DNA of 64,000 bases from a virus, in the IMG/VR virus record IMGVR_UViG_3300013125_000002. One strand, given 5' to 3'. Positions 5,579 through 58,248 of this stretch are shown here, piece by piece (position 1 is the stretch's first letter; the number at the start of each line of letters is the position of its first letter). A model generated the notes under the pieces. It was not told the origin of the DNA. It made no database searches and worked only from the letters and a program-made list of their open reading frames with translations. The position numbers and the translations under genes were made by a program.

Positions 5579-6414
5579 CAGCTCGTCTTGCCCTTCACAG
5601 CCCAGTATGCGTCCTGCCTCTCGATCTTTTGCTTTTCAAAACTCGAAGTCAGATCAGTAAGAGGGATCGATTGGGATGGGAACATAGGTAGCACAGCTTC
5701 GATCCCCTGGTCAGCTATTGCACTCAGAATGCGCTTCAGATCTGACTCGCGTATAAGGCACTCTCCTACTTGAGGTCGATCATCACAACTCTTCAGCGTA
5801 CAGAGACATCTTCCTGTCTCATCCCAACTATCTGTAACTTCCCAAACAGTCATCCGAGGGATCGGATAGTGAAACGAGTTTGTATGTGAAGTCGGCTCAC
5901 CAAATGAAAACTCCACTTGGGTTTCATCACCCACAAATCCTGCTCCACGAAGGTACCACCCCTCAGACGCCCACGTGCAACTAGGCAATTCTTGAGTTTC
6001 AAGAGTCATAATGATCAACTTCGCTAAATTAGAAAGATCAGGACAGGGAATATTGAACTGGGACTGGGTAGATCGAACGATCCTCTCAGCAAACCATCCT
6101 GCATCAGGATCACCAGGAAGCCATAATAGGCCAGGAGGCAACGAGTCACCCTTTAGACCACAGGCTACAAGCCACGATGTGAATGTGGAGCGCACAGCAG
6201 CATTAGTCACAACCTGAGAGAACACGGACGCATCAAATGCGATGTGCAGAGTGAGCATCTGGATTGGGCGGCCAAGCCCATCTCCATACAGCTCCCACTC
6301 TGCATTCGTTAGCGAGAAGCCACAGGGCTTCAACTCATCATGAAGCTTCCGATGAACTAGGCTCGTGTTCGCTGCTGGAATTAACACCCATGTCGGGTGT
6401 GACCCCCTGGGCAT
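5578..6414 (-). CDS. hypothetical protein
   Basis: 278 aa ORF, TGATG coupling to the next gene. Confidence 0.65.
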   Translation of the reverse strand: MPRGSHPTWVLIPAANTSLVHRKLHDELKPCGFSLTNAEWELYGDGLGRPIQMLTLHIAFDASVFSQVVTNAAVRSTFTSWLVACGLKGDSLPPGLLWLPGDPDAGWFAERIVRSTQSQFNIPCPDLSNLAKLIIMTLETQELPSCTWASEGWYLRGAGFVGDETQVEFSFGEPTSHTNSFHYPIPRMTVWEVTDSWDETGRCLCTLKSCDDRPQVGECLIRESDLKRILSAIADQGIEAVLPMFPSQSIPLTDLTSSFEKQKIERQDAYWAVKGKTS

Positions 6415-7036
6415 CGCACTCCTCCGCCGTTGTATCGATCACAAGTTCAGGCACAGGATCAGCGGGTGGAGAGAGCTTGGCCTTGAGGATAGCCATGGCC
6501 ACGAGCGCTTGAGCCTCTGGGCTCCAGTGTTCAATGGCATCAGTTCGCACTGTGACATCGACCTTGTGTGGCTCTTTGCTCACGAGCCCAATGTCAGTCA
6601 GCAGTTTGATCTGGTTGTTGCGAGCATTCTGGATCACATCCAAGAACTGCCGACGCTGCACAGAACCCTTGTCAGCATCGTGGTAGTCCTGCCAGGCTCG
6701 CAATTCGACCTCCTCGAATACCGAGAGGCTTTCTCCAATCATCTGGGCGTGCTCAAACCCAGATACCCGACGCTTGTTCTCTTCGCGAATTGCCTCAAGA
6801 TCACGTTTGATGGTCATGTGACCAACGTTGAGGATCTTCGCAATAGAACGGTAGCCCAAACCACGTAGACGTAAGCGGGCGACTTGTTTTCGACGGTCTT
6901 CGATCTCTTCCTTGGACGCTTTTGCAGGTGGCCTGAGCTTGGCGGGTCGGCGTCTTGGGATCAGCACAGGGGGCAAGGGTGTTGTGTTGGCCTGTTGAAC
7001 CATAGCTTTCATTGGAGTTCTGGCCATTTGGAGCAC
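6338..7036 (-). CDS. putative terminase small subunit (HTH protein)
   Basis: RRKQVARLRLRGLGYRSIAKILNVGHMTIKRDL HTH followed by helical oligomerisation region; near TerL. Confidence 0.6.
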   Translation of the reverse strand: MLQMARTPMKAMVQQANTTPLPPVLIPRRRPAKLRPPAKASKEEIEDRRKQVARLRLRGLGYRSIAKILNVGHMTIKRDLEAIREENKRRVSGFEHAQMIGESLSVFEEVELRAWQDYHDADKGSVQRRQFLDVIQNARNNQIKLLTDIGLVSKEPHKVDVTVRTDAIEHWSPEAQALVAMAILKAKLSPPADPVPELVIDTTAEECDAQGVTPDMGVNSSSEHEPSSSEAS

Positions 7037-7069
7037 TACCCTTGCGTTACAGGTGTACCATTAGTTCCA

Positions 7070-7099
7070 GCTATACACGAGTTGGACTTGGTACGTCAA
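7070..7099 (-). promoter_or_regulatory. sigma70-like promoter upstream of putative terS
   Basis: TTGACG-18 nt-TATAGC in an intergenic gap. Confidence 0.5.
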
Positions 7100-7102
7100 G
7101 CG

Positions 7103-7354
7103 TCATGTCGGAGGAAGTGTATGGAATCGACAGGCGATGCTCGATGCCAAACAGTGGATCTCGATCTCTGTGAGCACACTCACGTGGCGAGCACACCACT
7201 CCCCCCGGAAGAATGAACAAGTGCCACAGACCCGACCCTTTGCTTCCTTGATGATCCCTTCTGCTGCCTTTTGTAGAAGAGCCATGAACTTCTTGTGGGC
7301 ATCAGATGCAGGCCCTACGACAAAAGAGGTTTTGCGCGCCATACAGATCACCAC
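7103..7354 (-). CDS. Cys-rich hypothetical protein
   Basis: CGTC...WC...AC pattern. Confidence 0.55.
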   Translation of the reverse strand: MVICMARKTSFVVGPASDAHKKFMALLQKAAEGIIKEAKGRVCGTCSFFRGEWCARHVSVLTEIEIHCLASSIACRFHTLPPT

Positions 7355-7854
7355 GAGAGGTCGTCATCCCCGTGAATCTCGCATGCCTTGGCTTTGCGTA
7401 GTTCCTCCAGCTCAGCCTGAATAGCAGGATCTTCGTAGACACTGCGAGAGAGTGAATCCACTCCTGTGTTCTTCTCCCGTGGGATCCATTTGAATGTGAC
7501 CGACTTGCCGAACTTGCGTACTGCCTGCTTGACCAGACGATTCAGCTCCATGAGCTTCTCGTCATTGACGCTCCACACACCAGAGCACTGATTGACGATC
7601 AATTGCGAGTCCGATTGTACGATGACAGATCGCCTTTGATCTTCTGGCATCTTGAGCATCCACAAAAGCGCAGCGATGACTGCGTAGTACTCACCTTGGT
7701 TGTTGGTGTTGTCAGGATGTCCGTGATTGGCAATCCCAGCAGCTCGATGAATCTCACCCTTCTCTTTGCCGACGCTCTTCACGATGAATGCCCAGGAGAG
7801 AATGCCACCTGGGTTATGTGGCTCGATGGATGAGTCAGTATTGATGATATACAC
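7348..7854 (-). CDS. rnhA: ribonuclease HI
   Basis: NTDSS..NPG, TNNQGEY, SDSQLIVNQ, WIPREKN motifs. Confidence 0.9.
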   Translation of the reverse strand: MYIINTDSSIEPHNPGGILSWAFIVKSVGKEKGEIHRAAGIANHGHPDNTNNQGEYYAVIAALLWMLKMPEDQRRSVIVQSDSQLIVNQCSGVWSVNDEKLMELNRLVKQAVRKFGKSVTFKWIPREKNTGVDSLSRSVYEDPAIQAELEELRKAKACEIHGDDDLSW

Positions 7855-9977: not shown

Positions 9978-11816
9978 CTATGCGAAAGTCATGATGGGTG
10001 TTCTTCTGAGTCGTTCCAGTGCAACGTTGCAGTAGTTGAGTGCATGCACGCTGTGTGGGTCAAGACCCAAATTGACCCACTCCATCTTGAAGCGACCGGT
10101 CTCCTCATCCTGGACCGTCTTCTGTCGCACGATGCTCTTCATGTGCAGGTAGAAGTGCGTCTCGAAGATGTGGAGTGGTTCGTAGCGACCTGACTTTGGG
10201 CTCCGGCACACTTGAACAAGTGCCCGAGGGTGTGGCCATTCGAAGTCACGATCAGCAATCGATTTCATCGCCATCTCGATGGTGAGGTAGCGACTGAGAA
10301 GCACCGAGTACTTGAACTTGATCTTGGGTCCACCCTTCTTGACCGTTTGCTTCCACTTGGCTCGATCACCCCACTGGGCTACTTCCCTTTGCTGCTCGAT
10401 GTACCAGGAGACAAAGACACGCTTTGGGTGATCTCGTGCGAACTCCATAGCCTCGTTGGCATTCGGCATCGCATCGATGATGCAGAGATCAACATCGTAT
10501 TCCTTCATCAGCTGGTAGAGGCGCTTGAAAGGGGACTGTGGTTTCCCAGCTTCCCAGTAGAGCTGGTTGTGGTCATCAATGATCTCGAAATGGACAATGC
10601 GCTTCTTGTTCCCAAAGCGCTGGGCAATGACCACGTAAATGACACCGCTCATCTGATCCACACCCATGGCAGTGTGGCTCTTGCCCCCACCCCACATCAA
10701 ATCAGTGTTCTCACACGCAATGAGATCATCATCAGTGACCGGAACATTCTCCTCGTCAACGTAGGGCTTGCCCAGTTTGGCGTTGAAAAACTCCTTGATG
10801 TTCTGGGTAGTCTGGTAGGCCTCCCAGATCTCAGCAGCAGTGATGAACTTCGAGAGCATCTGGTGGATGTGATAGCTGTGAACATTCGCTCCAGGATTGT
10901 GGGGGATGAACTGCCCATTCTGGGGATCGATGATCTTCATCTTGCAGCGTGGGCAGCGATAGTAGACCTCCCCTTTTTGAGTGAGAGCAATGCAATCTGG
11001 GAAGACCTCACTCAGGATCACTCCATCAGGGCAGTTACAGCGGGTATGCCAGAAGTTCTGAGTCCCTCGGAGGAACTGCTTGTGGATGTCGGCGTTAGGA
11101 TAGCCAGCAGTTGAGACCTGGAGAACGTACTTGTAGGAGCTATGACTGATGCGCTCACGCGCCTGATCGATGTCTGCTGGATTGAGCAGTCGCACCTCAT
11201 CGAATGCGATCATATCGAAGGGTGTGGAGTCCTTCGACGCAATGCCACCCAGGTGTCTGAGGTAGAGCGCACTCTCCTTGCCAACCTGCTTGTAACCCAG
11301 GGTGTCAGAGTCCTTGACGGCCTCCTTCAACTCAGCATTGGAGTCGATGAGGGGAGACATACGATCTTTGCTGAGGAGTGTGACACCATCTTGGGTCGGG
11401 AAGAAGAAGCAGGCCTTGACAGCATTGTACATGCAGAAATGCAGTAGCTTGGTCAGCTCGAAGATCGTTGCCCCCATCTGAGCTGACTTCATAAGGGTGA
11501 ACTCATGGGCTGTGTCGAGGTAGAGGGGGATCAAATAACGATGCTTGTCGAAGTCAAAAGGCCGGTGGTCAACTTTGAGACCGCTTGTAGCAACCCATAG
11601 CGCCAGGTTGACCTTGGTCAGAGCTCGTATCTGCTCTGGTGTGATGTTCTGCAGCCCCGAAGACTGTCCTAAGCTGCTCAAGTCAATCCCAGAGGGCGCC
11701 AGAGACGAGAAGAGGTCGTTAGCAGCCCCTGCACCTTTCGGCAGCTGTACAGGCGTCCTGGAGAGCTGCTGAATCGGTTTGGTGTAGGGTGTGCGTTTTG
11801 CGGTTGGGCTGCTCAT
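9978..11816 (-). CDS. terL: terminase large subunit, lambda GpA-like
   Basis: KSAQMGAT Walker A variant, IAFDE Walker B, RCPRC zinc motif, FFNAKLGKPY, GVD nuclease motif. Confidence 0.9.
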   Translation of the reverse strand: MSSPTAKRTPYTKPIQQLSRTPVQLPKGAGAANDLFSSLAPSGIDLSSLGQSSGLQNITPEQIRALTKVNLALWVATSGLKVDHRPFDFDKHRYLIPLYLDTAHEFTLMKSAQMGATIFELTKLLHFCMYNAVKACFFFPTQDGVTLLSKDRMSPLIDSNAELKEAVKDSDTLGYKQVGKESALYLRHLGGIASKDSTPFDMIAFDEVRLLNPADIDQARERISHSSYKYVLQVSTAGYPNADIHKQFLRGTQNFWHTRCNCPDGVILSEVFPDCIALTQKGEVYYRCPRCKMKIIDPQNGQFIPHNPGANVHSYHIHQMLSKFITAAEIWEAYQTTQNIKEFFNAKLGKPYVDEENVPVTDDDLIACENTDLMWGGGKSHTAMGVDQMSGVIYVVIAQRFGNKKRIVHFEIIDDHNQLYWEAGKPQSPFKRLYQLMKEYDVDLCIIDAMPNANEAMEFARDHPKRVFVSWYIEQQREVAQWGDRAKWKQTVKKGGPKIKFKYSVLLSRYLTIEMAMKSIADRDFEWPHPRALVQVCRSPKSGRYEPLHIFETHFYLHMKSIVRQKTVQDEETGRFKMEWVNLGLDPHSVHALNYCNVALERLRRTPIMTFA

Positions 11817-15584: not shown

Positions 15585-15592
15585 CCACCAGA

Positions 15593-17349: not shown

Positions 17350-17417
17350 TTGGGGATCGAGACTGGTTCTGGCTTTGTTCCAGACGCTGGCTTAGGCTGC
17401 TGCTCTGCCACAATCAC
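17286..17417 (-). CDS. possible 43-aa Cys-rich microprotein overlapping the NYN start
   Basis: GTG overlapping the RuvC stop; encodes ...PKCATCQKPLTQCQCSHNDLKK. Confidence 0.35.
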   Translation of the reverse strand: MIVAEQQPKPASGTKPEPVSIPKCATCQKPLTQCQCSHNDLKK

Positions 17418-17977
17418 ACCGCCTTCTTGACTGGAGTTCGTTTGGGCTCACTGATCTTGTTGTCAATCACAAGCCCATAGTAGGCGAGAAGAGCTGCATC
17501 CGCACGACCATCCAACGATGCAACCTTGCCTTTGGGTTTGGTAAGAGGGAGTGCCGGAAACAGTCGCTGACACTTGGCAACTGATCTTGCTTTAGTGTCA
17601 TCACCACCTACTCCCGTCACTACACGTTTCATCCAGGTCTGTGCCGGCACAATCTCATAAGAGAGCTTGAGCCCTGCCAAGATCCCCTTCCAGAGACCAA
17701 AGCCCTCACCAGTCTTGAATGTCGAGGAAACCCCCTGCTTGGTCATGGGTCGTGCCTGCTCCAACATCACCATGACCGGCATTCCCAGCGCCGACTTCAC
17801 GACCTCCTCGAGCCTGGACACCATCTCCTGCTCGAGAAACGCATTCTTGGTCTTGCCCTTCGCCCCAAGATCAATGATAGGCGTATCGAAGTAGGCAAAG
17901 ACCTCTAGCGTGTTTGTGATTGCTACGACAGCCCCGTGGAGCCCGCCATCAATCCCGACTGATAGCCAACTGGCCAT
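17414..17977 (-). CDS. ruvC: RuvC-like Holliday junction resolvase
   Basis: VGIDGG, MLEQ, QGVSSTFKTGEGFG, DGRADAALLA. Confidence 0.9.
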   Translation of the reverse strand: MASWLSVGIDGGLHGAVVAITNTLEVFAYFDTPIIDLGAKGKTKNAFLEQEMVSRLEEVVKSALGMPVMVMLEQARPMTKQGVSSTFKTGEGFGLWKGILAGLKLSYEIVPAQTWMKRVVTGVGGDDTKARSVAKCQRLFPALPLTKPKGKVASLDGRADAALLAYYGLVIDNKISEPKRTPVKKAV

Positions 17978-25939: not shown

Positions 25940-27094
25940 CTACTTGACCACCATCTTCGAGTAGTAGTTCTTGACCACCTCAGAAACCAACTCCGGGTAC
26001 TCTGGATGGGTCATCACCTTCTCTCTGAACCCTCGCCAGCCCTGGAACTTGATCTCCGTCTTTCCAGTCTTCCAGGTCTTCCAGGTCGTGCCCGCGATGA
26101 TCCCTTGCTTCTGCCCCTGCTCGAAGACTGAGTAATCCAAACTGAACCCAAAGCCACCGATGCACGGGACCTCTACCGTCCTCAAGATCGGAGCCATCTT
26201 GTTCTTGAGGATCTTCACCTTGATCTTATGGCCGATGGTGGTCTTCTCTTCGTCCGTACCTTCACTGATCGCTCCGATGCTCTGAAGACGAATACGAAGA
26301 GTGGCGAAGAACTTCATCTTCTCCCCACCATAGGTTTCCCACGGATCACCATACTTCACATCCATCTTGCGATAGAGATGGTTGGTGATCACAAAGGCGA
26401 TGCGCTGCTTGCTGATCTTGTTGACGACCCTCTGCAGGTTCTGCCCAACTACCTTGGCAGCTTCTGCATAGAACTTGTCATCTGCTGCAGCTGCCTCCTG
26501 AGCCTTGGTAGGAGTACCTCCGAGGGAATCCCAGCCAAGGCAGATGAGCCGCTCATCCCCAGCATCACGAATGACCTCAATCAGAGCCTCATCCTTCTCG
26601 AATACTTCCTCGATGGTAGCTGCCGGAACAATGATGAGACGTTCGAGATCGACTCCCAGCTGCTCCCAGTAGGCAAGGTCCAACGCCTGCTCGGTGTCTG
26701 AGACAGCCGCGATGCCGCCTGTTGCCTGAGTCTCAGCCACGATCATACCAAGCAATGTGGTCTTGCCGGTACTGTTGAGCCCACTGATCTCCGTCATCCT
26801 CCCGAAAGGAACAAGCGGACGGGGCATAGGCAAGCCACCAGCGATGGCAGAGTCGATCAGGAAGTTGCGGGTCGAGACCGAGTGCTCAACCTTGCAGAGG
26901 ATGGTTCCGGAATTGGGGATGAATGCGGACTCCTTGCCGAACTTCTTCTCCATCTTGTGGACGACATCGGCGATGAAGTCAGCATCTCTGGCACGCTCTG
27001 GATCAACCTGTGGTTCTTCCTGCTCGGCCACCTCTTCTACCTCGACCTCAGACTCTTCTTCCAAAGAAGCTCGCTTGACTGCCTGCCTTGCCAT
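25940..27094 (-). CDS. recA: RecA/UvsX recombinase
   Basis: GLNSTGKTT, DTEQALD, WDS, GGEKMKFFATLRI, KNK. Confidence 0.95.
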   Translation of the reverse strand: MARQAVKRASLEEESEVEVEEVAEQEEPQVDPERARDADFIADVVHKMEKKFGKESAFIPNSGTILCKVEHSVSTRNFLIDSAIAGGLPMPRPLVPFGRMTEISGLNSTGKTTLLGMIVAETQATGGIAAVSDTEQALDLAYWEQLGVDLERLIIVPAATIEEVFEKDEALIEVIRDAGDERLICLGWDSLGGTPTKAQEAAAADDKFYAEAAKVVGQNLQRVVNKISKQRIAFVITNHLYRKMDVKYGDPWETYGGEKMKFFATLRIRLQSIGAISEGTDEEKTTIGHKIKVKILKNKMAPILRTVEVPCIGGFGFSLDYSVFEQGQKQGIIAGTTWKTWKTGKTEIKFQGWRGFREKVMTHPEYPELVSEVVKNYYSKMVVK

Positions 27095-28364: not shown

Positions 28365-28936
28365 TCCTCCTGTGCAGCAGCCTTGACCGGCTGCCGTGTT
28401 GATGTAGCTGCCGTCCGCACTGGCTGTCTCGCGGGTGGCTGCTGCTTGTTCTCTGCTTTCGCCTTCGCTATCGCTGCCGCTTTCTGCTTTGCCATCTCCT
28501 GCAAGATCACTGGATCAGCGTTACCCTCAGCACGATAGTTCGCGCCAAGTGAGATCAGCATCTCCTTACGCTGAGTGAATGCTTCTCTACCGGCCTGAAG
28601 CACCCCATACTGCCGTTTGCTCTCCAGGTACTCCTTCATCTTGGCCTGGTACCGCTTGTCCGTGATCACCTCGTTCTCGACCATCTTCTCAGTGAGCTTG
28701 ACCTTGGCGACGAGTGCCTGACTTCGCTTTTCGTGGTCCAGCTGTGCGTAGAGGATGTCGAGATCGTACTTCTGCTTGGAGACCAAGTCCTTCGCCATCT
28801 CACTCAGGATTGCCCACCAAGCATACTTCCGAGACTGCTCCACGAACTCCGCATCAAGATCAGATGGATCGATCTTGATGTCGTCTTCCAGACTGGAAGA
28901 GTAGGAAATGCCATTGATCGTGACCTGAACATCCAA
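28361..28936 (-). CDS. UvsY-like recombination mediator
   Basis: Helical protein (KLTEKMVENEV...AFTQRKEMLISLGANYR) adjacent to SSB and RecA. Confidence 0.7.
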   Translation of the reverse strand: MDVQVTINGISYSSSLEDDIKIDPSDLDAEFVEQSRKYAWWAILSEMAKDLVSKQKYDLDILYAQLDHEKRSQALVAKVKLTEKMVENEVITDKRYQAKMKEYLESKRQYGVLQAGREAFTQRKEMLISLGANYRAEGNADPVILQEMAKQKAAAIAKAKAENKQQPPARQPVRTAATSTRQPVKAAAQED

Positions 28937-28949
28937 CCCTTAAAAGCTA

Positions 28950-29275: not shown

Positions 29276-29278
29276 TCT

Positions 29279-29310: not shown

Positions 29311-29312
29311 CC

Positions 29313-31415
29313 TCAGGCAGCCATCTTGAGCGGTTTCTTTTCAGCCCAGTTAGTCAGGGAGTAGGAGACCTCAGCCGTCATGGGAACCTTGAAGTGGAAG
29401 TCCTCCATTTGCTTGACGATTTCCGAAAGGAGGGAGATCTCCTCACGGTGCATGTAGAAGACCATCTCGTCGTGAATTGGCATCACAAGACGTGACCTAG
29501 CTTGCGCTTTTTTGAGCACCTCATTGACCCTGACCATGGCAATCTTGAAGAGATCAGCACATGATCCCTGGATCAGATAGTTGACTGCCTGACGCTCGCA
29601 ACGCTCGATCTTCCACTTGTTGACCCTCTCACTCCGCAACAAAGCCCTAAGTTCCGGGAACCTACGGTACCTTCCAAAGTAGTTCTGGACCTCCCCATTC
29701 TGCCGCAACCAGAGCTTGGTATTGGTGATCCACTTCTTCACACCTTTGAGCTTCTGGAAGTACTGATCAATGAAGACCTGGCACTGCTTCTCGGTGTATT
29801 GCTTCTTGGGGGTGCTGATTCTAGCAGCGAGTGTTCGAGCCTGACCGCCATAGATAATCAAGAAGTTGATCATCTTGGCAACCTTACGCATGAAGGACAG
29901 CTCTGCGTAGTCTGGGTGCTTCTCATCCTCCAGGATCTTCACTGCCTCATCGTAGTTGTACCCGAACATCTCGCACATAGTTCGGGTGTGAACGTCCTCA
30001 CCTGTGACATTGTAGACCTCGAGCAGAATGGGATCTTCACTGTAGTGGGCTGTCATGCGGACTTCCATCTGACTGTAGTCCGCAAAGATCATAATGAAGT
30101 CGTCTGTTGAAACGACGTGCCCCCCACAATGAGGACAGGTGCTGGGAATGACCAAAGCCTGACCAAGGTAGCCGCATGGCTTGTGATCAGCACTTCCTAT
30201 GCAGGCAAGAGCCTTGGGCGGAATGAATGCCCTACGGATCGCCTTGTCTTTGGCCGGGATGTTCTGAAGATTCGGCTGTTTTGACGACATGCGGCCTGTC
30301 GTCACATTCTGGTTGTATTCACAGTGGAGCTTGAGCTGCTCGGTGAGCTTCTCCAAGATCGAATCCACATAGGTGGACTTCTTCTTGGTGATTGACCGGT
30401 ACTCCAGAAGGTCTTCACAGACCTGGTACTTGGTTGCCAACATGGAGAGGACTTCGTGATCCAGAGATGGGCGCTGACTAGTTTTCGTTGTCTTGGTCAG
30501 CTTAACTCCGATCTTCTGGAGCGCAGGGATGAGAGAGATGTTGCTGTTGACGTTCACCTTTCCCAACTGGTCAATGATCTTCTGCTTCAGCTCCGCTGCT
30601 TCTTGGTCCAGCCCTGGCCCAGCTTTGCTCAGGTAGTCACGGTTGATGTAGACCCCCTCATGCTCGATCATGAGAAGCACCCGCATGAGCATGTTCTCGA
30701 CCAGGTACAGCTCCATCAGGTAGGGGTCCTCCATGATGAGCTTCAGCTTCTTCTTGTAAAGGACCCATTCATAGTGAGCATCACTGCCGGCGTAGGGGGT
30801 CATCATGTCCAGTGGGATCAGCCCATAGTGGACATCGTTCTTCTTCATCTTGTTCTTGCGTGCATACTCTGCACGCCAAAGATCGATTGCCTTCTCCCAC
30901 TTGTCAGCGTCGGGATGGATCTCGACCGTGGACAAGTACTTCAGCCCCGCTGGCCCATTCTCATTGATCAAGCTGTGCATAAGGCGGGTGTCGTGGACCA
31001 GCCCCCGAGGCATCAGGTTGATCTTAGAGAGATGGTGCCCATCGTGCTTGAAGTTGTGCCAAGCAGTAACCCGCTTCGGATTGAAGTAGAACTCTTCGAG
31101 GTCTGGTCTGATCTTCTCCAGCTCGAGCTGTTTCTCGTTGGTCGAGTGCCCTACTGGAACGTAGTAGCTCTCCTCAGGACCCCACGAAAAGCTGAACCCA
31201 ATGATGTGGCTGGTGACAAATGAAAGCCCATCAGACTCTGTGTCTGATCCTACTTCCATTTGTGCATTGAGGCGCGGAAAGAACTCGCGCCATAGAGCCA
31301 TCGTATTGATCAGGTGATACCGGCCACCCGCCACCCCCTCCCACGTCCTTGGTTTCTGGGGTAAGGCATGAAACGCTTGCCTCACCGTCTGTGCCTGCGA
31401 CGCAGGTCTTTGCAT
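29313..31415 (-). CDS. polA: family A DNA polymerase with 3'-5' exonuclease
   Basis: DTESDG, HNFKHD, YAGSD; TGRMSS..PNLQNIP, DYSQMEVR, KMINFLIIYG, HDE. Confidence 0.97.
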   Translation of the reverse strand: MQRPASQAQTVRQAFHALPQKPRTWEGVAGGRYHLINTMALWREFFPRLNAQMEVGSDTESDGLSFVTSHIIGFSFSWGPEESYYVPVGHSTNEKQLELEKIRPDLEEFYFNPKRVTAWHNFKHDGHHLSKINLMPRGLVHDTRLMHSLINENGPAGLKYLSTVEIHPDADKWEKAIDLWRAEYARKNKMKKNDVHYGLIPLDMMTPYAGSDAHYEWVLYKKKLKLIMEDPYLMELYLVENMLMRVLLMIEHEGVYINRDYLSKAGPGLDQEAAELKQKIIDQLGKVNVNSNISLIPALQKIGVKLTKTTKTSQRPSLDHEVLSMLATKYQVCEDLLEYRSITKKKSTYVDSILEKLTEQLKLHCEYNQNVTTGRMSSKQPNLQNIPAKDKAIRRAFIPPKALACIGSADHKPCGYLGQALVIPSTCPHCGGHVVSTDDFIMIFADYSQMEVRMTAHYSEDPILLEVYNVTGEDVHTRTMCEMFGYNYDEAVKILEDEKHPDYAELSFMRKVAKMINFLIIYGGQARTLAARISTPKKQYTEKQCQVFIDQYFQKLKGVKKWITNTKLWLRQNGEVQNYFGRYRRFPELRALLRSERVNKWKIERCERQAVNYLIQGSCADLFKIAMVRVNEVLKKAQARSRLVMPIHDEMVFYMHREEISLLSEIVKQMEDFHFKVPMTAEVSYSLTNWAEKKPLKMAA

Positions 31416-31815: not shown

Positions 31816-32388
31816 TCACGCCTTCTTGACTGGCGTGCGGACTACTGGTGTGCGCCGGATTGGTTGTGGCTGCGGAGATACCGGAGCCTGTGCTGCTGCC
31901 CGAGTCATGGGTGTGCGTTTGACTGGCGTCTTGCGCACCGCTGTCCGTTCCACCTTCGGCTGTTCCAGCTTCTCCTTGATCTTCTCGATCTGCTTCGCCT
32001 GTTCCTCCTTCAGAAGACTGGCTTCCTCTGCGAGTAGTGTGTCGATGAAGACCTCGGGGGCCTGGCGAGCTGCCTTGGCAGTGCTACCCTCGAGCACCTC
32101 GCACTGCTTGACCGACCATACCTGGTCCTTGATCGTAGGCAGCTTGATCTTCGGATACCGCTTCAGAAGAGCAGTGTAGATGACCTCCACTGCTACTGAA
32201 TGCCCGTAGATGTCAAAGCCATCCTTGGTCTTGCGCTCTGGCCGAGTGATTCCCAGTGACTCACCACAGCGAAGTAGTGTGCCAGCTCTCAGAGGTGATG
32301 GGTTGTCACCACTCACGATCTTGTCCTCACTGCGTCGCGTACACCTCCCGAGAACCGGGAAGTCGAAGATGACTGCCTCGTACATCAC
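31816..32388 (-). CDS. hypothetical protein with multi-RTP C-terminal tail
   Basis: Tail RKTPVKRTPM...RRTPVVRTPVKKA. Confidence 0.75.
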   Translation of the reverse strand: MMYEAVIFDFPVLGRCTRRSEDKIVSGDNPSPLRAGTLLRCGESLGITRPERKTKDGFDIYGHSVAVEVIYTALLKRYPKIKLPTIKDQVWSVKQCEVLEGSTAKAARQAPEVFIDTLLAEEASLLKEEQAKQIEKIKEKLEQPKVERTAVRKTPVKRTPMTRAAAQAPVSPQPQPIRRTPVVRTPVKKA

Positions 32389-40822: not shown

Positions 40823-41614
40823 TCACTCCTCGGACTCATCCTTCTTGGTGGCCTTCTGGATCTTGTCAGCCGTCGCAGCGTACATGTGCCCCTTGCTGGT
40901 GGCCTTGTCCGGAACGTGAACAGGCTCCCAGTCAGCGAAGGGAGACCCCTCCTCGTCGCTGTACTTCGGCCGATTCACCTTGTCCCCCACGAATTGGGCA
41001 TAGTGATTCGGCCCCTGAACGTTCTCGATCTTCCCAGACTCCGTGAAGAAGAAGTCGTAGTCCGTTCTGCCCTTCTGCTTGCCACGGAAGGTGTGGTTGT
41101 CGAGAGCGTAGTCAGGCATCGGTAGCAGATTGCCCAGGGCTCGCTCGTTGATCATGAACATCAGATAGTCGTCCACCTCCCGGTTCTTGGGACAACGAGC
41201 GAGATAGAGCACCGCCTGGGCCAGGCACTCGATAGCTGACGAGGGAGGCTTCTTGAAGCCATCCGTCAGCCTCTCGTAGCCGTGGTAGAGCGAGTCCACC
41301 AGGATTGCCGCCAGCGGATTGACCAGACCGATATCCTCGCTGGCGATGACCGTCAGCCTCTTCCAGAGATAGCGAGCATACCCACAGGGATTGTTCTCCC
41401 CGAGGGGCTCCTGCATCTCCATCGCCCAGAAGAGAGCTGCCTTCTCGTTGCACCTGCGGATCGACTTCTGCAGTGCAGAGACGACCTCCATCAGGTCGTA
41501 GCCGTTCTTGGTCCTGCTACTGAACTTACCCCGCTTGAGATGCGGAGCCTGATTCAACGGGTCGGACACCGTTGCCGGAGCTGGTGTCCGTTTCACCACG
41601 GGCTGCTTGGGCAT
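40823..41614 (-). CDS. stand-alone RarA/MgsA C-terminal-like domain protein
   Basis: SALQKSIRR...WKRLTVIASEDIG...QAVLYLARCPKNR...PDYALDNHT; no Walker A. Confidence 0.8.
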   Translation of the reverse strand: MPKQPVVKRTPAPATVSDPLNQAPHLKRGKFSSRTKNGYDLMEVVSALQKSIRRCNEKAALFWAMEMQEPLGENNPCGYARYLWKRLTVIASEDIGLVNPLAAILVDSLYHGYERLTDGFKKPPSSAIECLAQAVLYLARCPKNREVDDYLMFMINERALGNLLPMPDYALDNHTFRGKQKGRTDYDFFFTESGKIENVQGPNHYAQFVGDKVNRPKYSDEEGSPFADWEPVHVPDKATSKGHMYAATADKIQKATKKDESEE

Positions 41615-48505: not shown

Positions 48506-48868
48506 CTACTTACTGTCCTCGATCTTCCAGAAGGCATGAGGTCTGGAAATCATCTCCCCGACCTCTTCCTCCTTCGGCTCCTCCACGACCTGCTGTTTGG
48601 AGTTCAGCTCCTTGGACTCATCTCGGTCGACCGTTAGCTCCATCCGCTGCCGAACATGGCCAGCCTCAACCAGCTCCACCTCGAGCACATTGGAGCCATT
48701 CACACAACGACCGCCAATGCGGCTCGAACTGTCACTGATGTCGCCGTGCTCTCGCACGTAGATGTTGAGCGAGAATCCACCGCCTGGCTTCCGAGGACCT
48801 GTGCCAATGTCCTTCTTGGCCCCATCGACACTGCCCTCGATCCAGAAGTTCCTAACGACCCGAGGCAT
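48506..48868 (-). CDS. hypothetical protein
   Basis: RNFWIEGSVDG...GP..GGF. Confidence 0.7.
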   Translation of the reverse strand: MPRVVRNFWIEGSVDGAKKDIGTGPRKPGGGFSLNIYVREHGDISDSSSRIGGRCVNGSNVLEVELVEAGHVRQRMELTVDRDESKELNSKQQVVEEPKEEEVGEMISRPHAFWKIEDSK

Positions 48869-51303: not shown

Positions 51304-52689
51304 CTACGTCTGCTTGAAAGGCTGTCTCCTGGGCTTAGCAGCTATCGCCACAGGTGTTGAACCAAGAAGTGGAGTTGGGGGATTGGCTTGCACATTGATC
51401 ACAGGTTCGAAGAAGCACATCCTCTCGAGTGCCATCTTGATCGTAATCGTCTGATACTTAGGACCATTACGATTCTTAGCAAGGAACAAACGCATGATCT
51501 TCTGATGAACCTCTTCTTTGGTCTGGTTCATCGTAATCAGAATATCTGCGTTATTGATCTTGCCAATATCCTCCGCAACGTTCTCTTCAGTGTGGGTCTC
51601 CATCGAGATAGCCGCTCGCTGAGACTGTGTAGCCGTCCAGATGGGGAGCTTCAGCTCGAGAGCCAGACCCTTCAGAGCCTCAGTCGTAGCTGTCAGCTCG
51701 TCCCGCTTCTCCTTGTAGTGTTGCGGAGGCTTGAGTAGATCGAGGTAGTCTACAAGGATCAGCTCGGGTTCAAATCCAAGACCACAACAGTGCAGGATGT
51801 GGCTACGAAGTGTCTGCACTGAGGCTGTCTTGGTAGGGTAGTTCTTGATGATCAGAGTATTGCCAAACCGGCGCCCTATCCGTTCGAGCTTCTCAGCCAA
51901 GACGTTCTGGTAGTCATCGTCCAAAAGATCCCGCATGTTGATCTTTGTAAACGATGCATCGTAACGACTTGCCACCTCATCCTGGGGCATCTCAAACGAG
52001 TAGTGAATGGTCTTCTTCTTGACGATAACTGCACGCTTACCACAGTGGCCAAGGGCAGCGCTCTTGCCACGGTTGGTAGGGGCCATCCAGATGCCCACCT
52101 GGCCTCCCCAGATGCCTCCATTCAAATGGATGTCCAGCTCGGTGATACCGGTAGGCACAATGATCTTGGCCTTCTGCTCGACTCGCCTCCGTAGCCGTTC
52201 CGGCCAATTCACAAAATACAACTCACCTATGTCCGAAACATCCGCTCCTGTCCGCACGGCAGCAACCATGCTCTCCTCAATCTCCTCGAACTTCCCCTCC
52301 TCAAGAAGCTGAGGACAGCGCAGAACGGCTGCCTTGATCGCCTGGTGCTTGCAGAATTTGAGGACCTCGTCTTTGATGTACTGCTTGTCCTGCACATCCG
52401 TGTGGAGAACAGTGAATAGATCAACATAGGCCTGAACATCAGCATCCTTGATCTTCTTCCGACTAGCATCCTTCAGCAACTCATTCCGAAGGGCGTCGGA
52501 ACCAATCCGCATCTGGTAGTCCTGGTAGTAGTCTCTGATCTTGCAGAAGAACCACACCAGTATGTCATCGCTAAAGTGCTCAGGGACCACCAAATCCTGA
52601 CACATGATCAGGAAATCGAAGTCCTGGAACATCAGCGCAAGGATTTTGATCTGGAACTGCCGGTCAAACACAAATGTGGCTGCAGTCAT
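51304..52689 (-). CDS. dnaB: DnaB-like replicative helicase
   Basis: PTGITELD, APTNRGKS, SFEM, VDYLDLL, TATQSQR, KNRNG. Confidence 0.95.
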   Translation of the reverse strand: MTAATFVFDRQFQIKILALMFQDFDFLIMCQDLVVPEHFSDDILVWFFCKIRDYYQDYQMRIGSDALRNELLKDASRKKIKDADVQAYVDLFTVLHTDVQDKQYIKDEVLKFCKHQAIKAAVLRCPQLLEEGKFEEIEESMVAAVRTGADVSDIGELYFVNWPERLRRRVEQKAKIIVPTGITELDIHLNGGIWGGQVGIWMAPTNRGKSAALGHCGKRAVIVKKKTIHYSFEMPQDEVASRYDASFTKINMRDLLDDDYQNVLAEKLERIGRRFGNTLIIKNYPTKTASVQTLRSHILHCCGLGFEPELILVDYLDLLKPPQHYKEKRDELTATTEALKGLALELKLPIWTATQSQRAAISMETHTEENVAEDIGKINNADILITMNQTKEEVHQKIMRLFLAKNRNGPKYQTITIKMALERMCFFEPVINVQANPPTPLLGSTPVAIAAKPRRQPFKQT

Positions 52690-54669: not shown

Positions 54670-55716
54670 TTAGAGCCTGCCTTCCTTTCGCAGACGCAAC
54701 CACGTCCGGTTCTTCTTCAGCCACGCATGATCAAAGTAGGCCACTCCAGGTCTCGCAAACTTCAAAAGAATCTGCTCTTCCGAAGAGTGCCAAGCAGACA
54801 TCAACTGCTGGAGCTTTTGATCATTGGCCTTCATCAGCTCCTTCTCGTCGATCTTCACTCGCTTGGAGATGTGACGAATGACTTCGCGAACTTGACCCGC
54901 GTTGAGGAGCTTCATGTACTCACGAACTCTCTCTGGCGCCGGGAACTTCGTCTTCAGGCCAGAAAGCTCGTAAGGCTTCGGGGCTCGTTTGAACCACTGA
55001 TCAAACCAATAAAACTGGGCTTTGACGTAGACTTCGTAGCCACATCCCAGTTGATCTGCGATCAATGCAGCCCGCTTGAACTGCTCAAAAGACTTGTATT
55101 CCGTGGAGATGGCACCTTTGACGAAACGCAAAGTCGGCCGATGAAGATACTCACCGAGAGCTGTTTCGTAGGTATAGGCCATCTCGCGGACCTTCACCAG
55201 AAGGTCTTGATCTTCGATGACTGCCTTGCGCTTCTCCTGACCCAACGCGATTCTCCGAGCCTTTTCGACCAGCTCGTTGTGGCGAGTCTTTCTGGTCTCG
55301 AGAGCTTTCTGATCCTGAGGATTTGATCCTGGTTCTTTCTTGCTTCCCGTACTACGGGGATCGCGCGCGGGCGTAAGAGTATTATTATTAATATTAATAC
55401 TAGATCTTAGATCTGATCTAGTATGTGTATCTGTACTAGTAATGCTCACTTCGTTCGCATTAACTAGTACAGATACAACAGGCCGCAGCGCGGCCTGGGT
55501 TCCAGTTACACCCCTAGCATTCCGGAGTCTGGAATGAACCTCGGCTAACTTCTTGGAAGATTGATCTTGGTTATCGTTGGAAGAGTATTGATCCTGGGGA
55601 TCGGTGTCTGCTTTGAGCTTGTATGGCGTGCGTGTGATGCCCACAGGATCAACTCCGAAAAGACAAAAGAACCCCCAGGTCCTGACCGACCTGACTATCG
55701 GAGTTGTCTCTGGCAA
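54670..55716 (-). CDS. putative replication initiator / helicase-loader-like protein (start uncertain)
   Basis: Low-complexity linker encoded by an AT-rich palindromic island, as in lambda O-type initiators; upstream of dnaB. Confidence 0.45.
   Translation of the reverse strand: MPETTPIVRSVRTWGFFCLFGVDPVGITRTPYKLKADTDPQDQYSSNDNQDQSSKKLAEVHSRLRNARGVTGTQAALRPVVSVLVNANEVSITSTDTHTRSDLRSSININNNTLTPARDPRSTGSKKEPGSNPQDQKALETRKTRHNELVEKARRIALGQEKRKAVIEDQDLLVKVREMAYTYETALGEYLHRPTLRFVKGAISTEYKSFEQFKRAALIADQLGCGYEVYVKAQFYWFDQWFKRAPKPYELSGLKTKFPAPERVREYMKLLNAGQVREVIRHISKRVKIDEKELMKANDQKLQQLMSAWHSSEEQILLKFARPGVAYFDHAWLKKNRTWLRLRKEGRL
55346..55477. repeat. AT-rich nested inverted repeats; candidate replication origin
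   Basis: TATTAATATTAATA palindrome; ATACTAGATC..GATCTAGTAT; TGTATCTGTACTAGT..ACTAGTACAGATACA. Confidence 0.55.
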
Positions 55717-55923: not shown

Positions 55924-56502
55924 TTAGGTTTTTGGAGTCTGTCGTTCGTGGATCTGGCGGAGGGTCTCGTAGGCGGCACTAAGTCTCTGGAACTGTTCCT
56001 TAGTGCCACCAGGACGGTCTGGGTGCTGCAGTAATGCCAAGGCTTTGTACGCCGCTTGTATGACCTCCCAGGGGGCCTCAGGAAGCACGAAGAGGACTTC
56101 ATGGGGGTCCTGGGGCTCCTCGACCAGAGAAACGGCTCCTGGGCGATTGTGCTTCTCCAGGAAGCGCACCAGAGCGATTTGCAGACCCTCCGGGAGGCTG
56201 CTCCAGTCAACCTGATCGAAGTACTTCTTGCCCATCGAAACGGCAACGAAGAGCCGGTTCCGGTGAATCTCCCAGCAGCGCCCGTTCCAACGCCGATAGG
56301 CAGTTGGTCTGATCCCGTACCGCACAAAGTGATTGAACCGTTCGTTACGTGGAAACTGCAGCTCTATGAAAGAGCTGTCAGGATCATACTTCAGCTGCAG
56401 GATCTGTGGGGGCATTGGATGACCAGCGAAGCTCTGTGAATTCGACCGCAGTCCCATTGGGACTGACAACCAAGAGTACAGGTCTCTCAGCTCGCTCGGC
56501 AA
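55924..56502 (-). CDS. J-domain (DnaJ-like) protein with N-terminal HARP-like domain (likely start MPPQIL)
   Basis: DPHEVLFV...IQAAYKALALLQHPDRPGG..FQRLSAAYETL. Confidence 0.85.
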   Translation of the reverse strand: MPSELRDLYSWLSVPMGLRSNSQSFAGHPMPPQILQLKYDPDSSFIELQFPRNERFNHFVRYGIRPTAYRRWNGRCWEIHRNRLFVAVSMGKKYFDQVDWSSLPEGLQIALVRFLEKHNRPGAVSLVEEPQDPHEVLFVLPEAPWEVIQAAYKALALLQHPDRPGGTKEQFQRLSAAYETLRQIHERQTPKT

Positions 56503-56818
56503 GCTTCAAGGTATGGGCTGTACCTGGGGATGAGCCATCCCAAAAAACGATCAGAGCTTCACAGTCATTGATGATCTTGAGGTTGCGGAGCATCCCAGCC
56601 TTCTTGCCATGCAACCGCCAATCTGCTCGGTGGATTGCTGGTTCCGGATAGCCAAGTCGCTTCGCCTCTTTCTCAGCTGCCGTGTCGACTCCTCGAGCCC
56701 CACCACTGACGATCACAGATGGACCCAGATTCTGCACAGCAGCTTCTACAAGATCAAGTCGCTTGAAGTCACGAGATCCAACGACAGCAACTCGCTTGTA
56801 TTGGACGGGTGTTTTCAT
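56384..56818 (-). CDS. SLOG family (YspA/DUF2493-like) protein
   Basis: VVGSRDF, VSGGARGVD, AGMLRN, FWDGSSPGT. Confidence 0.88.
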   Translation of the reverse strand: MKTPVQYKRVAVVGSRDFKRLDLVEAAVQNLGPSVIVSGGARGVDTAAEKEAKRLGYPEPAIHRADWRLHGKKAGMLRNLKIINDCEALIVFWDGSSPGTAHTLKLAERAERPVLLVVSPNGTAVEFTELRWSSNAPTDPAAEV

Positions 56819-57042
56819 GATCTCCTGAAAGGGGTACGCACTAAGCGTTTGACGGTTGTACGGGTTGGTCGGTCTCGATTGAGGCTCTTTGGGCAGATGT
56901 AGCAGTGCTCATACTGATCCATAGGTTTGATCCCAGGACCATGACCTGTAGGACAAGCCTCAACTGTCTCGAACTCTTGCCCTTTCGCTACAACCCGAAG
57001 ATAGTGATGACAGTGGACCCACATCCGCTGTATGTCACTCAT
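56815..57042 (-). CDS. small Cys/His protein
   Basis: HCHH...CP...CYIC. Confidence 0.6.
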   Translation of the reverse strand: MSDIQRMWVHCHHYLRVVAKGQEFETVEACPTGHGPGIKPMDQYEHCYICPKSLNRDRPTRTTVKRLVRTPFRRS

Positions 57043-57388
57043 TGATCTTCAACCACTCATGGAGCTGGGACACCGTACTGAACATCGGAAGCTTGAGTCG
57101 CTTAGCTTCCTCCCACTCCTCCATTGCACCTTTTGACCGATCCCACCCAGGCAACAAGAGGACAGCATCACAACGTCGCATCAGCTGCAAGGTTGCTTCG
57201 TACCAAAACTCTGGAGTGAGCAATCCGTGGAAGTTGTCAGTCATCTTGTGGGGGCAGACTGGCATGGCTCCTAGTTTAGCGATCTCCAAGGAGTACTTCT
57301 CTGCAGCATCGACATTCTGTTTGATCAGCCAGTGTGTTGCAGCCGTGAACGGTCCACAGGTGTAGACCAACTTGATCTTCTCTGTCAT
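57035..57388 (-). CDS. nucleoside 2-deoxyribosyltransferase-like (DUF4406-like) protein
   Basis: YTCGPF, CPH, RCDAVLLLPGWDRSKGAMEE. Confidence 0.85.
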   Translation of the reverse strand: MTEKIKLVYTCGPFTAATHWLIKQNVDAAEKYSLEIAKLGAMPVCPHKMTDNFHGLLTPEFWYEATLQLMRRCDAVLLLPGWDRSKGAMEEWEEAKRLKLPMFSTVSQLHEWLKINE

Positions 57389-58248
57389 TGGAGTCTCCGA
57401 ATCGCCTCGGTTGGATCGATATCACCGAGGATAAACCTACGACCTGTGGTTCGACAAGCTTGACCTGTGCTCCCACTGCCACAGAACGGGTCAAGTACAA
57501 CAGCGCCCTTGTTGGACGATTCTTTGATCAAGATCTCGAGCAGCTCGCGTGGTTTCTCCGTCGGATAGAATCCTTTGCCCTTGAGGCGTTTCACCGGGAT
57601 CACATCACCATATAGGTTGGTATTGAGCCGGCGATGCTTCCCCTTTCGGATCACCTTCTCAAGAAGAACGATCTTCTCAGACTGAGCTGGGTAGTGATAG
57701 CCCATTCCCTTGACTGTCTTGTCCCAAGTGATGTCCTTCCAGTACTTCAAGCCGGCCACAGCAATAGGGGCAAAGCCCTTGTGGTAGAGCTGTGGTTGAG
57801 TAATGAACTTCTCAACTGTTGGAGAGTATCCACAGCAAACAAGATCGCGTGTCTCTTGATCCAGGAACACATACACGTGTGTACCTGGTCTCAAAACTCG
57901 GTAGATCTCGTTGAACAGATCGAAGTACCTATGATTTGGGAAGGTCTCGAACCACTTGTTGGAAGACCCATTGGACACCTTGAGTCTGGTTGTTGATCCT
58001 ACTGCTCGCCACTTTTCCAAACTTTCGTAGGCAGGGTCTGTGATCACCAGATCGATGCAGCTATCAGGAAGCGCCCTCAGCAGCTCTACAGCATCAGCCT
58101 TGTAGATGTCCCCATCGGGGCAAATCCACTCGGGGATGAGCTTCTCTGCACAAGGTATGTCCCTAGTGGGTTCTAGAACCGAAGATGGTGCCTGGGCTGC
58201 ACTAGGAAGCTCATGGAAGGCGTTTCGACGGAAGGGTGTCCTCATCAC
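57385..58248 (-). CDS. N4-cytosine/N6-adenine DNA methyltransferase (beta class)
   Basis: ITDPAY catalytic motif before PTEKP and VLDPFCGSGST. Confidence 0.92.
   Translation of the reverse strand: MMRTPFRRNAFHELPSAAQAPSSVLEPTRDIPCAEKLIPEWICPDGDIYKADAVELLRALPDSCIDLVITDPAYESLEKWRAVGSTTRLKVSNGSSNKWFETFPNHRYFDLFNEIYRVLRPGTHVYVFLDQETRDLVCCGYSPTVEKFITQPQLYHKGFAPIAVAGLKYWKDITWDKTVKGMGYHYPAQSEKIVLLEKVIRKGKHRRLNTNLYGDVIPVKRLKGKGFYPTEKPRELLEILIKESSNKGAVVLDPFCGSGSTGQACRTTGRRFILGDIDPTEAIRRLQ

Follow-up and report, generated by a model that had tools for sequence, protein, structure and literature searches.

A short basic motif at the ends of the DNA-transaction proteins of a phage as a candidate docking tag

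Known terminal peptides and the motif in the phage window

The recruitment of enzymes to a hub by short tags is itself well known. Sliding clamps are bound via the motif QL[SD]LF in the case of the bacterial beta-clamp, via the C-termini of gp43, gp33 and gp55 in the case of gp45 of the phages T4 and RB69, and via the PIP-box of the PCNA clients. The C-terminal tip DDDIPF of the E. coli SSB gathers helicase, mediator, recombinase and nuclease clients, and the acidic C-terminal tails of the T7 gp4 helicase and of gp2.5 dock on the gp5 polymerase. Short basic proline units are furthermore known from the SPKK or S/T-P-x-K repeats of linker histones and sperm H2B and from the AT-hook (R-G-R-P). 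Here we describe a terminal motif, R-[TQ]-P-[VFMY], which is shared by replication, recombination, modification and packaging proteins encoded in a stretch of 64,000 nucleotides (in the following the window) of the IMG/VR virus record IMGVR_UViG_3300013125_000002, an uncultured phage. The motif is real, terminal, conserved and a feature of the peptide level, it is restricted to DNA-transaction proteins, and its flavour changes in step across related lineages. It most likely serves as a common address tag, which would bind a protein and presumably a single reader.

With the clamp-binding motifs, the subject of a review on the beta-clamp (PMC11139829), the motif shares the length of five to eight residues, the terminal position on many unrelated DNA enzymes and the multi-client character. 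However, its profile [RK]-[TQ]-P-[VFYMI]-[KR] contains neither a Gln-Leu nor a Phe-Phe pattern, whereas the clamp-binding peptides are Gln-plus-hydrophobic or acidic-hydrophobic, and the phage differs from the clamp systems in that its polymerase belongs to family A and that the tag is also carried by RuvC and by both subunits of the terminase. The helicase-borne tail of T7 gp4 is likewise a C-terminal docking peptide, and distant relatives of the window's DnaB carry acidic-hydrophobic tails at the same place, but the T7 tails are of opposite charge, and the motif described here is shared with enzymes of packaging, methylation and resolution. The SPKK units and the AT-hook are similar in being short, basic and proline-containing, often arrayed in disordered tails and acting on DNA. 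Yet in SPKK two basic residues follow the proline, where a hydrophobic residue comes first in this motif, and Gln, Ser, Cys, Arg or Pro can take the place of the threonine. The motif also occurs as single copies of six to eight residues on enzymes, with flavours that shift in step between lineages, and Gly-Arg-Pro is found in none of the 32 tag instances and only in the tails of two relatives.

The SSB tip of E. coli is an acidic-hydrophobic peptide on the SSB with the binding pockets on the clients, whereas here a basic peptide is located on the clients. The list of carriers nevertheless overlaps with the interactomes of the SSB-type hubs (UvsY, UvsX/RecA, helicase, MgsA/RarA, DprA, RNase H). 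In T4, gp32 recruits gp59, UvsX, UvsY and Dda via its helix 248-270 (PMC11551737). The SSB of the window possesses a conserved C-terminal helix of its own, DDLEAxMRAA, similar to the partner-binding helix of T4 gp32. The closest working analogy would be the logic of clamp-binding and PIP-box motifs, and the closest one by client list the SSB/gp32 interactome. The statement of an earlier sequence-only reading of the window, which had proposed a genome-wide address tag, that no such shared tag was described for a phage proteome was too broad, given that clamp-binding and SSB-type tails are textbook knowledge, but this particular motif was not encountered in print: a literature search, largely at the level of titles and abstracts, retrieved no description of a basic T/Q-P-hydrophobic tag or its PP variant, nor, for a PolA phage without recognisable clamp, of a tag common to terminase, resolvase, helicase, recombinase and methylase, and the matches to the motif strings were unrelated acronyms only.

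Enrichment, carriers and conservation of the motif

Nearly all genes of the window are located on the minus strand, and the analysis is based on 88 called minus-strand proteins (19,598 amino acids), the start codons also being our own calls. Most of the gene names given by the sequence-only reading agreed with the Pfam and PHROGs assignments. These comprise genes of packaging and resolution (TerS with a helix-turn-helix, TerL, ParB-N, an RNase H-like protein, NYN and a RuvC-type resolvase), of recombination and repair (SbcC/SbcD, RecA, a gp32-type SSB and a UvsY-like mediator) and of replication (family A polymerase, primase, DnaB helicase, UvsW and an MgsA_C protein), as well as genes for a CobS-like AAA+ protein, CobT, HNH, an N6/N4 DNA methylase, a SLOG/DprA-like protein, a J-domain protein and lysis enzymes. 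No clamp or clamp loader was detected by Pfam or PHROGs among the window proteins, which represent 64 kb of a contig of 152,486 bases on which the RuvC and DnaB of the window are recorded, and a Pfam search at an E-value of 0.5 with the 38 unannotated proteins of the window revealed no credible clamp or other named hub.

The strict motif R-[TQ]-P-[VFMY] was matched 13 times in 10 of the 88 proteins, compared to a mean of 0.93 in whole-protein shuffles (maximum 5 in 2000) and to 0.95 in shuffles of 20-residue blocks which preserve the local composition of the tails, while the 23 alternative orderings of the four residue classes yielded between 0 and 4 matches each. All 13 matches lie within approximately 30 residues of a protein end. 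Since this motif had been defined post hoc by the sequence-only reading from the same data, an unbiased scan of the terminal 30 residues was run, in which RTP was the most enriched tripeptide (10 versus 0.97 expected, P = 8e-8; only two in the 14,318 residues of inner sequence) and RTPV the top tetrapeptide. The loose pattern [RK][TQSN][PA][VFMYIL], which takes in the variants listed by that reading, was found 25 times in terminal sequence (5.9 expected, maximum 15 in 1000 shuffles) and 8 times in inner sequence (10.9 expected). The proposed shared motif is real, and the loose pattern shows no excess in inner sequence.

In a six-frame control, the three frames of the coding strand contained 17 matches and the opposite strand five, none of which falls into a called gene. 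The codons for Arg, Thr, Pro and Val/Phe vary among the copies, which argues for selection on the peptide and not for a DNA repeat; a DNA-level repeat or a promoter at gene boundaries was ruled out on the basis of these codon differences. Good ribosome-binding sites precede the starts of RecA, PolA, SLOG and CobS, so that N-terminal tags directly follow the initiator methionine.

The position profile given above is derived from 32 tag instances, in which Thr (23) or Gln (9) precedes the proline, invariant by definition. The residue following it, which the search pattern forces to be hydrophobic, is Val in 14, Phe in 7, Tyr in 6, Met in 3 and Ile in 2 instances, and the next one is Lys or Arg in 18 of the 32. 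The flanks are not always basic: the tag of the protein encoded at 54670-55716 runs on into KLKADTDPQDQ, UvsY ends in KAAAQED, and several tags have acidic flanks and a net charge of only +2 to +3. The tags are very short, such as MKTPVQY of SLOG, which directly precedes the first strand, or MRTPFRR of the methylase. Considering the short tags, the non-basic flanks and the hydrophobic residue after the proline, a pocket-binding motif fits better than a charge-driven tail.

All peptides quoted by the sequence-only reading were recovered at the genes to which it had assigned them (Table 1), including the variants in RecA, PolA (VRQAFHALP), the methylase (RNAFHELP) and ParB (RSPV). It had overlooked the tag near the N-terminus of the protein 54670-55716 (ITRTPYKLK) and that at the C-terminus of TerL (RRTPIMTFA). 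The carriers thus are TerS, TerL, RuvC, UvsY, DnaB, the DNA methylase, the MgsA_C protein and the SLOG/DprA-like protein, in addition to the proteins 31816-32388, 54670-55716 and 56815-57042. According to our own classification, the tag occurs in 8 of 20 annotated DNA-transaction proteins and in none of the 13 other annotated proteins (sugar and methyl transferases, radical SAM enzyme, ThyX, kinase, pyrophosphatase, lysis enzymes, J-protein and CobS/CobT; one-sided Fisher P = 0.009). This agrees with a confinement of the tag to genes of DNA replication, recombination and packaging. SbcCD, UvsW, the primase, the SSB and the RNase H are untagged.

The tags also lie outside the conserved folds, as had been proposed. 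In an AlphaFold2 model of RuvC (41-sequence alignment, mean predicted local distance difference test (pLDDT) score 92) the last helix comprises the residues 156-171, and the residues 172-187, which hold KRTPVKKAV, form a coil of falling confidence. Remote RuvC homologues end 9-29 residues past the catalytic DGRADA without such a tail, tail-less DnaB homologues end directly after RMCFYEP, many UvsY homologues end before the tail, and the alignment with distant TerL proteins starts only at residues 58-107.

A sister phage, represented by two IMG/VR contigs (G001, 46.8 kb; G002, 77.6 kb), encodes proteins matching 48 of the 88 window proteins at 26-82% identity. Eleven strict matches were detected in it (approximately 1.5 expected). 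Eight lie no more than 30 residues from an end, two lie at 50-53 residues, and one is internal at 95. Besides the tags given in Table 1, the sister possesses KRTPY and SRTPV in TerL, KRTPFKMK at the end of RuvC, ARTPAKTGKQPVK in UvsY and an array in its counterpart of the protein 31816-32388. The changes between window and sister preserve the residue classes (R/K, T/Q, V/F/Y), the tagged orthologues being 45-78% identical, and comprise swaps of Thr and Gln in SLOG (KTPV/KQPY), the TerL C-terminus (RTPI/RQPI) and UvsY (RQPV/RTPA). The structural block of the sister, to which portal, head protease, major head protein and baseplate belong, contains a single strict match in 57 proteins with a length of 80 residues or more.

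Among the closest 63 RuvC homologues 19 have [RK][TQ]P[VFMY] tails, 6 looser ones, 13 PPP[KR], 8 other long tails (several of them PP-like) and 17 no tail, and Ser, Cys or Arg may take the place of Thr. The motif was absent from 56 more distant RuvC homologues. TerL N-termini and RuvC tails of seven further loci all bear related motifs, and the same range of tail flavours was observed in DnaB (120 homologues) and UvsY relatives, the latter including KKPVGKK, RRRPKK and PPPRR in other lineages; more distant homologues are without tags. A single-protein RuvC scan of viral contigs and a scan with P0162 retrieved no relatives, and scans of metagenomes and GTDB genomes mostly revealed short contigs or distant tail-less relatives.

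A concerted change of flavour was found in G006, a 109.6-kb IMG/VR contig that was reached through a DnaB relative and whose core proteins are 43-64% identical to those of the window. Nine orthologous carriers have basic-P-P-(P)-x-basic at the same ends instead. Four of these are given in Table 1, namely TerS, RecA, the methylase and the counterpart of the protein 60867-61442, where the window has KSPF; the other five are TerL (KKNPPPKR, followed by RTAVKIK and RQAVKIK), RuvC (ending in KRPPPRRA), UvsY (ending in TTPPARKPPMKRPQ), DnaB (KKPPPLKK) and CobS (KKTPPPLGPRK). Descriptive counts at most 40 residues from an end, with block-shuffle means in brackets, were 17 (1.4) for flavour A, [RK][TQ]P[VFMYIL], and 2 (0.8) for flavour B, [KRQTNS]PP(P)x[KR], in the window, 15 (1.9) and 2 (0.8) in the sister, and 1 (2.0) and 9 (1.3, maximum 5 in 300 shuffles) in G006, where PPP is the most enriched terminal tripeptide (10 versus 1.9, uncorrected P = 3.5e-5). 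Furthermore, the flavours match in five pairs of RuvC and DnaB homologues which were paired by an identical longest-contig value and very probably stem from one contig each (the observed score was reached in 4 of 120 permutations), and in eight genomes the RuvC tail resembles the TerL N-terminus of its own genome more than those of the others (permutation P = 0.025). In G005, a related fourth lineage, tags are few (CobS KRTPVKAK; UvsY ending in KKRPVRRD), its DnaB and methylase being untagged.

Proposed docking on a common reader and alternative functions

Based on these results, [RK]-[TQ]-P-hydrophobic-[KR] may represent a short linear docking motif that is read by one common protein partner, a function to which we assign about an even chance. 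The motif would have been added to a free terminus of the proteins responsible for replication, recombination, methylation, resolution and packaging of the phage DNA, and its recognition by one reader would keep these enzymes together in one place, presumably on the DNA that is being replicated and packaged. The logic would be that of the sliding-clamp-binding or SSB-tip motifs, realised by a basic proline-containing peptide in a PolA-type phage without a recognisable clamp, and the protein 31816-32388 with its four to five copies could serve as a multivalent scaffold or as a competitor. Since the change on nine carriers goes in the same direction and the changes between window and sister stay within the residue classes, the motif behaves like a docking motif with one partner, and the concerted switch speaks more for one common reader than for generic DNA binding. 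The acidic-hydrophobic tails at the same position of distant DnaB relatives cannot bind DNA and resemble the docking tail of T7 gp4, and were counted in favour of docking. The joint shift of flavour on nine orthologous carriers lends support to the idea of an address tag for a common hub.

The reader could be encoded by the phage or by its host. Candidates which are conserved in all lineages examined are a small acidic SH3-like protein (22139-22336), which matches only unnamed viral clusters in the ESM Atlas, the J-domain protein (55924-56502), the gp32-type SSB and CobS/CobT; the proteins 61493-61963, 36914-38023 and 32385-33050 are likewise conserved in these lineages. The SSB is a possible reader. 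However, its C-terminal helix resembles the classical client-binding helix of T4 gp32, thus recruitment by the SSB needs no tag on the client, and by analogy the SSB probably recruits clients in the classical direction, the basic tag being an additional address. More speculatively, and in our view rather doubtfully, a clade of clamp-less PolA-type phages may have built its own hub-and-tag system with one phage-encoded reader, the protein 31816-32388 as scaffold and a tryptophan motif (see below) as second address. The reader would co-evolve with tags on terminase, resolvase, helicase, recombinase, mediator and methylase, recognising T/Q-P in one lineage and P-P-P in the other, and the five-tag protein 31816-32388 would gather replication, recombination and packaging into one factory.

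Several observations weigh against a common reader. Direct DNA binding accounts just as well for the DNA-acting carriers, the motif is similar to S/T-P-x-K units of the H1/SPKK type, and the tails of other lineages share mainly a basic and proline-containing character, a composition typical of nucleic-acid binding; AT-hook-like GRP units occur in equivalent tails (L005 RRGRPSK, G006 TerS MGRPRK). The flavour switch is essentially one split from A to PP across many proteins, not many independent events. Pattern B was written after inspection of G006, which makes its count descriptive and leaves the orthology table as the real evidence. Pairing RuvC and DnaB by equal contig values is indirect and its permutation test weak, and so is the comparison of RuvC and TerL, which gives P = 0.09 without close relatives. 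Finally, G005 keeps every candidate reader despite its few tags, therefore presence and absence did not narrow the list of readers.

The tags may instead bind nucleic acid directly, as SPKK/H1-like or AT-hook-like units that raise the DNA affinity of DNA enzymes, the basic residue lying in the minor groove, the proline making a turn and the protein 31816-32388 acting as an H1-like DNA condenser. We regard this as a serious alternative, though not as the probable one. All annotated carriers are DNA enzymes, T-P-x-K is similar to the S/T-P-x-K units found in linker histones, histone H1.0 contains the string TPVKKA, and the tags are arrayed on one protein (31816-32388). In addition, the related lineages carry other basic proline tails, including GRP-type units in equivalent tails, and the SSB of the clade has a PAAK-rich linker. 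However, DNA is the same in all lineages, so that a concerted change from T/Q to P on nine carriers would not be expected unless the DNA differs, for instance by modification. The hydrophobic residue after the proline, the replacement of Thr by Gln, Ser, Cys and Arg and the low net charge of several tags with acidic flanks do not fit SPKK-like binding either, and CobS, an AAA+ protein without known DNA role, is tagged in G005 and G006.

A variant of protein recognition with a different outcome would be a handle by which a chaperone or unfoldase, either host ClpX(P) or DnaK via the phage J-domain protein, remodels or removes the carriers. ClpX acts on MuA and lambda O, DnaK/J function in lambda P/DnaB release, and proline-rich peptides, to which the PP-flavour tails look similar, bind DnaK. 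ClpX recognition signals are reportedly short and located at the N- or C-terminus of unrelated proteins, MuA ending in RRKKAI; they include a basic MuA-like C-terminus (C-motif 2) and the N-terminal pattern polar-T/hydrophobic-hydrophobic-basic-hydrophobic (N-motif 1). The ends VKKAV and VKKA resemble this MuA end, and orthologues of the J-domain protein (55924-56502, Pfam DnaJ) are kept by the sister, by G005 and by G006. Nevertheless, such a role seems improbable since only two of the 13 strict tags end in this manner, since there is no evident reason to degrade terminase, helicase and recombinase together, and since the high conservation of DnaK and ClpX leaves a lineage-specific flavour unexplained, unless the N-terminal domain of the J-protein is the reader.

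The proline-directed Ser/Thr phosphorylation switch that the sequence-only reading had considered draws on the match of T-P-x-[KR] to the consensus of the cyclin-dependent kinase type and on the Thr present in 23 of the 32 instances. It is very unlikely, as Gln takes this position in the remaining 9, Thr and Gln are swapped between orthologues, Ser, Cys or Arg occur in relatives and Pro in G006, and no kinase family was identified among the 88 window proteins. Hardly credible, too, is a motif without any function that would simply reflect composition, an overlap with ribosome-binding sites or a DNA repeat between genes. The motif was indeed defined post hoc, and the RRS codons and stop of the protein 56815-57042 also serve the next gene as ribosome-binding site and start. 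However, most C-terminal tags lie 33-77 nucleotides from the next start according to the coordinates of the open reading frames, and the block shuffles (0.95 versus 13), the differing codons and the conservation in orthologues of 45-78% identity speak against such an origin. As a separate candidate, a head-protease cleavage site (hydrophobic-x-K before S, A or G) was rejected, for only the two ends with VKK before A fit by eye and those of DnaB, methylase and TerS do not.

Tag sites, neighbouring observations and implications

The tag sites and variants of the window are listed in Table 1. The tag at the C-terminus of TerL is ambiguous and may be part of the TerL fold or a portal-binding end. 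The PolA variant, which the sequence-only reading had included, has no counterpart in the sister phage or in the two other lineages, and probably stands outside the tag system.

Table 1. Sites of the motif and its variants in the window, with counterparts in the sister phage and in G006
Feature	Position	Strand	Remarks
TerS, N-terminal RTPM (MARTPMK)	7010..7021	-	gene 6338-7036; helix-turn-helix matches; sister MSRTPVK; G006 KKKPPPVPP
TerL, N-terminal RTPY (KRTPY), first of two	11784..11795	-	gene 9978-11816; Pfam GpA_ATPase, tblastn; conserved in 7 related loci
TerL, N-terminal RTPV (SRTPV), second	11748..11759	-	gene 9978-11816; kept in sister
TerL, C-terminal RTPI (ends in RLRRTPIMTFA)	9993..10004	-	R[RK][TQIV]P[ILM] in 8 related TerLs, absent in two distant ones
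RuvC, C-terminal RTPV (ends in KRTPVKKAV)	17429..17440	-	gene 17414-17977; PHROG 1770; coil after helix 156-171
UvsY-like protein, two C-terminal RQPV (RQPVR, RQPVK)	28385..28429	-	gene 28361-28936; PHROG 1069/2058
Protein 31816-32388, C-terminal array KTPV, RTPM, RTPV, RTPV (KTPVKRTPM...RRTPVVRTPVKKA)	31828..31932	-	RTAV upstream; array also in sister
MgsA_C-domain protein, N-terminal KQPV and RTPA (KQPVVKRTPAP; MPKQPVVKRTPAP)	41579..41608	-	gene 40823-41614; no orthologue found in sister, G005 or G006
DnaB-type helicase, C-terminal RQPF (ends in RRQPFKQT)	51316..51327	-	gene 51304-52689; sister ends in KRQPYKLT
Unannotated protein 54670-55716, RTPY near N-terminus	55621..55632	-	sister ARVAFKY at same place; putative start codon
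SLOG/DprA-like protein, N-terminal KTPV (MKTPVQYKR)	56804..56815	-	gene 56384-56818; GGAG 4 nucleotides upstream; sister MKQPYVF
75-residue Cys/His-rich protein 56815-57042, C-terminal RTPF (ends in VRTPFRRS)	56827..56838	-	last codons overlap ribosome-binding site and start of SLOG gene
N6/N4 DNA methylase, N-terminal RTPF (MRTPFRRNAF)	58231..58242	-	gene 57385-58248; sister MKTPFRKDAF; G006 MIKQPPPVRPPVK
RecA, N-terminal variant RQAV (MARQAVKR)	27077..27088	-	gene 25940-27094; sister identical (MARQAV); G006 MPKTPPGKKPPVRQP
Unannotated protein 60867-61442, C-terminal variant KSPF	60909..60920	-	G006 orthologue KPPAKK at same place
PolA, variant RQAF near N-terminus	31371..31382	-	gene 29313-31415; not conserved in sister, G005 and G006

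At 56804-56842 the last codons of the protein 56815-57042 (F-R-R-S-stop) simultaneously provide the GGAG ribosome-binding site and the ATGA-overlap start of the SLOG gene, which itself opens with a tag (MKTPV), so that two tags are located eight codons apart in two frames. The AlphaFold2 model of the protein 31816-32388 (two-sequence alignment, mean pLDDT 46) was too low in confidence for use, and a search of the ESM Atlas with its residues 1-140 gave no usable match.

In a second terminal motif, Trp comes after basic residues at the C-terminus or close to it, as in the ends RGRKSFW, KRKGTW, TRKGDW, KRTGYWS, PPGYWKV, RQRKARW and RNAYWQL. Such C-termini were noted in the proteins 43045-43596, 43590-43958, 43955-44734, 45836-47155, 58245-58565, 60867-61442, 5018-5578 and 48506-48868. 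Trp is the last residue in six of the 88 proteins (P = 0.006), and the basic-Trp tails are kept in the sister and partly in G005 and G006. Some RuvC relatives combine both motifs in one tail (ending in KKTPVKRKGSW or KRTPVKKKDTW), therefore the two may belong to one system. The RNase H-like protein (7348-7854) ends in DDDLSW and its relatives in DDDLSW, GDDITF, DDDLPF, WDDLQF or WDNILW; this acidic tip with terminal aromatic residue resembles the bacterial SSB tip DDDIPF, here placed on a nuclease.

Other lineage-specific tails were observed in distant DnaB relatives (P0236-P0238, P0246, P0199, P0200, P0208, P0225 and P0227). They are either acidic-hydrophobic (ending in DGVLILQ, GDVFIL or DDVLVLI) or of the form [VI]-x-F-P-[VILM], another group ending in [YF]SPxTGGxIxT. 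These tails make the C-terminus of the helicase look like a general docking site that exists in many dialects. AT-hook-like units are present in the tails of relatives, namely in a 97-residue protein (L005 6351-6644) ending in KPKRRGRPSKHRDTF and at the N-terminus of the G006 TerS (MGRPRKIKKKPPP).

The architecture of the gp32-type SSB (27186-28364), which 17 relatives share, is unusual. The basic N-terminus leads to an OB core with Cys/His and a long acidic linker, followed by a conserved Cys mini-domain (YPxCFGxExDxxDxxC...CxLFxxC), a PAAK-rich linker and the conserved C-terminal helix DDLEAxMRAA. The J-domain protein (55924-56502) carries a 125-residue N-terminal domain without assigned function and is 44% identical to its counterpart in the sister, 35% in G005 and 44% in G006. 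ThyX (20312-22135) comprises 607 residues including a LAGLIDADG domain, compared to 221 residues in the sister, which suggests an intein. Inteins are likewise suggested by the length of TerL in the sister (966 residues, G002 28378-31278) and in L003 (756 residues, 1487-3757), compared to 612 residues in the window, together with a split BLAST match, and one DnaB relative carries intein/Hint domains. The block 11823-17349 encodes ParB-N, a PIG-L deacetylase, a class I methyltransferase, a glycosyltransferase-like protein of 498 residues, a radical SAM/SPASM enzyme and NYN; except for NYN it is absent from the sister, G005 and G006, and it could be a lineage-specific cassette for the modification of DNA or protein. 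Between the CobT and MgsA_C genes, the gene 40520-40819 encodes 99 residues with a net charge of -22 and an Asp/Tyr/Phe-rich end, for which no orthologue was found in these three relatives.

If one reader gathers the tagged enzymes, the phage would show a spatial coupling of replication, recombination, DNA modification and packaging without a recognisable sliding clamp. The tag would furthermore be of use as an annotation aid, by which the proteins 31816-32388, 54670-55716 and 56815-57042 become assignable to the DNA-transaction machinery, and the two natural flavours on the same orthologues offer a ready-made specificity swap in the search for the reader. Should the tag bind DNA instead, it would represent a compact DNA-affinity unit that can be transplanted and that differs from both the AT-hook and SPKK.

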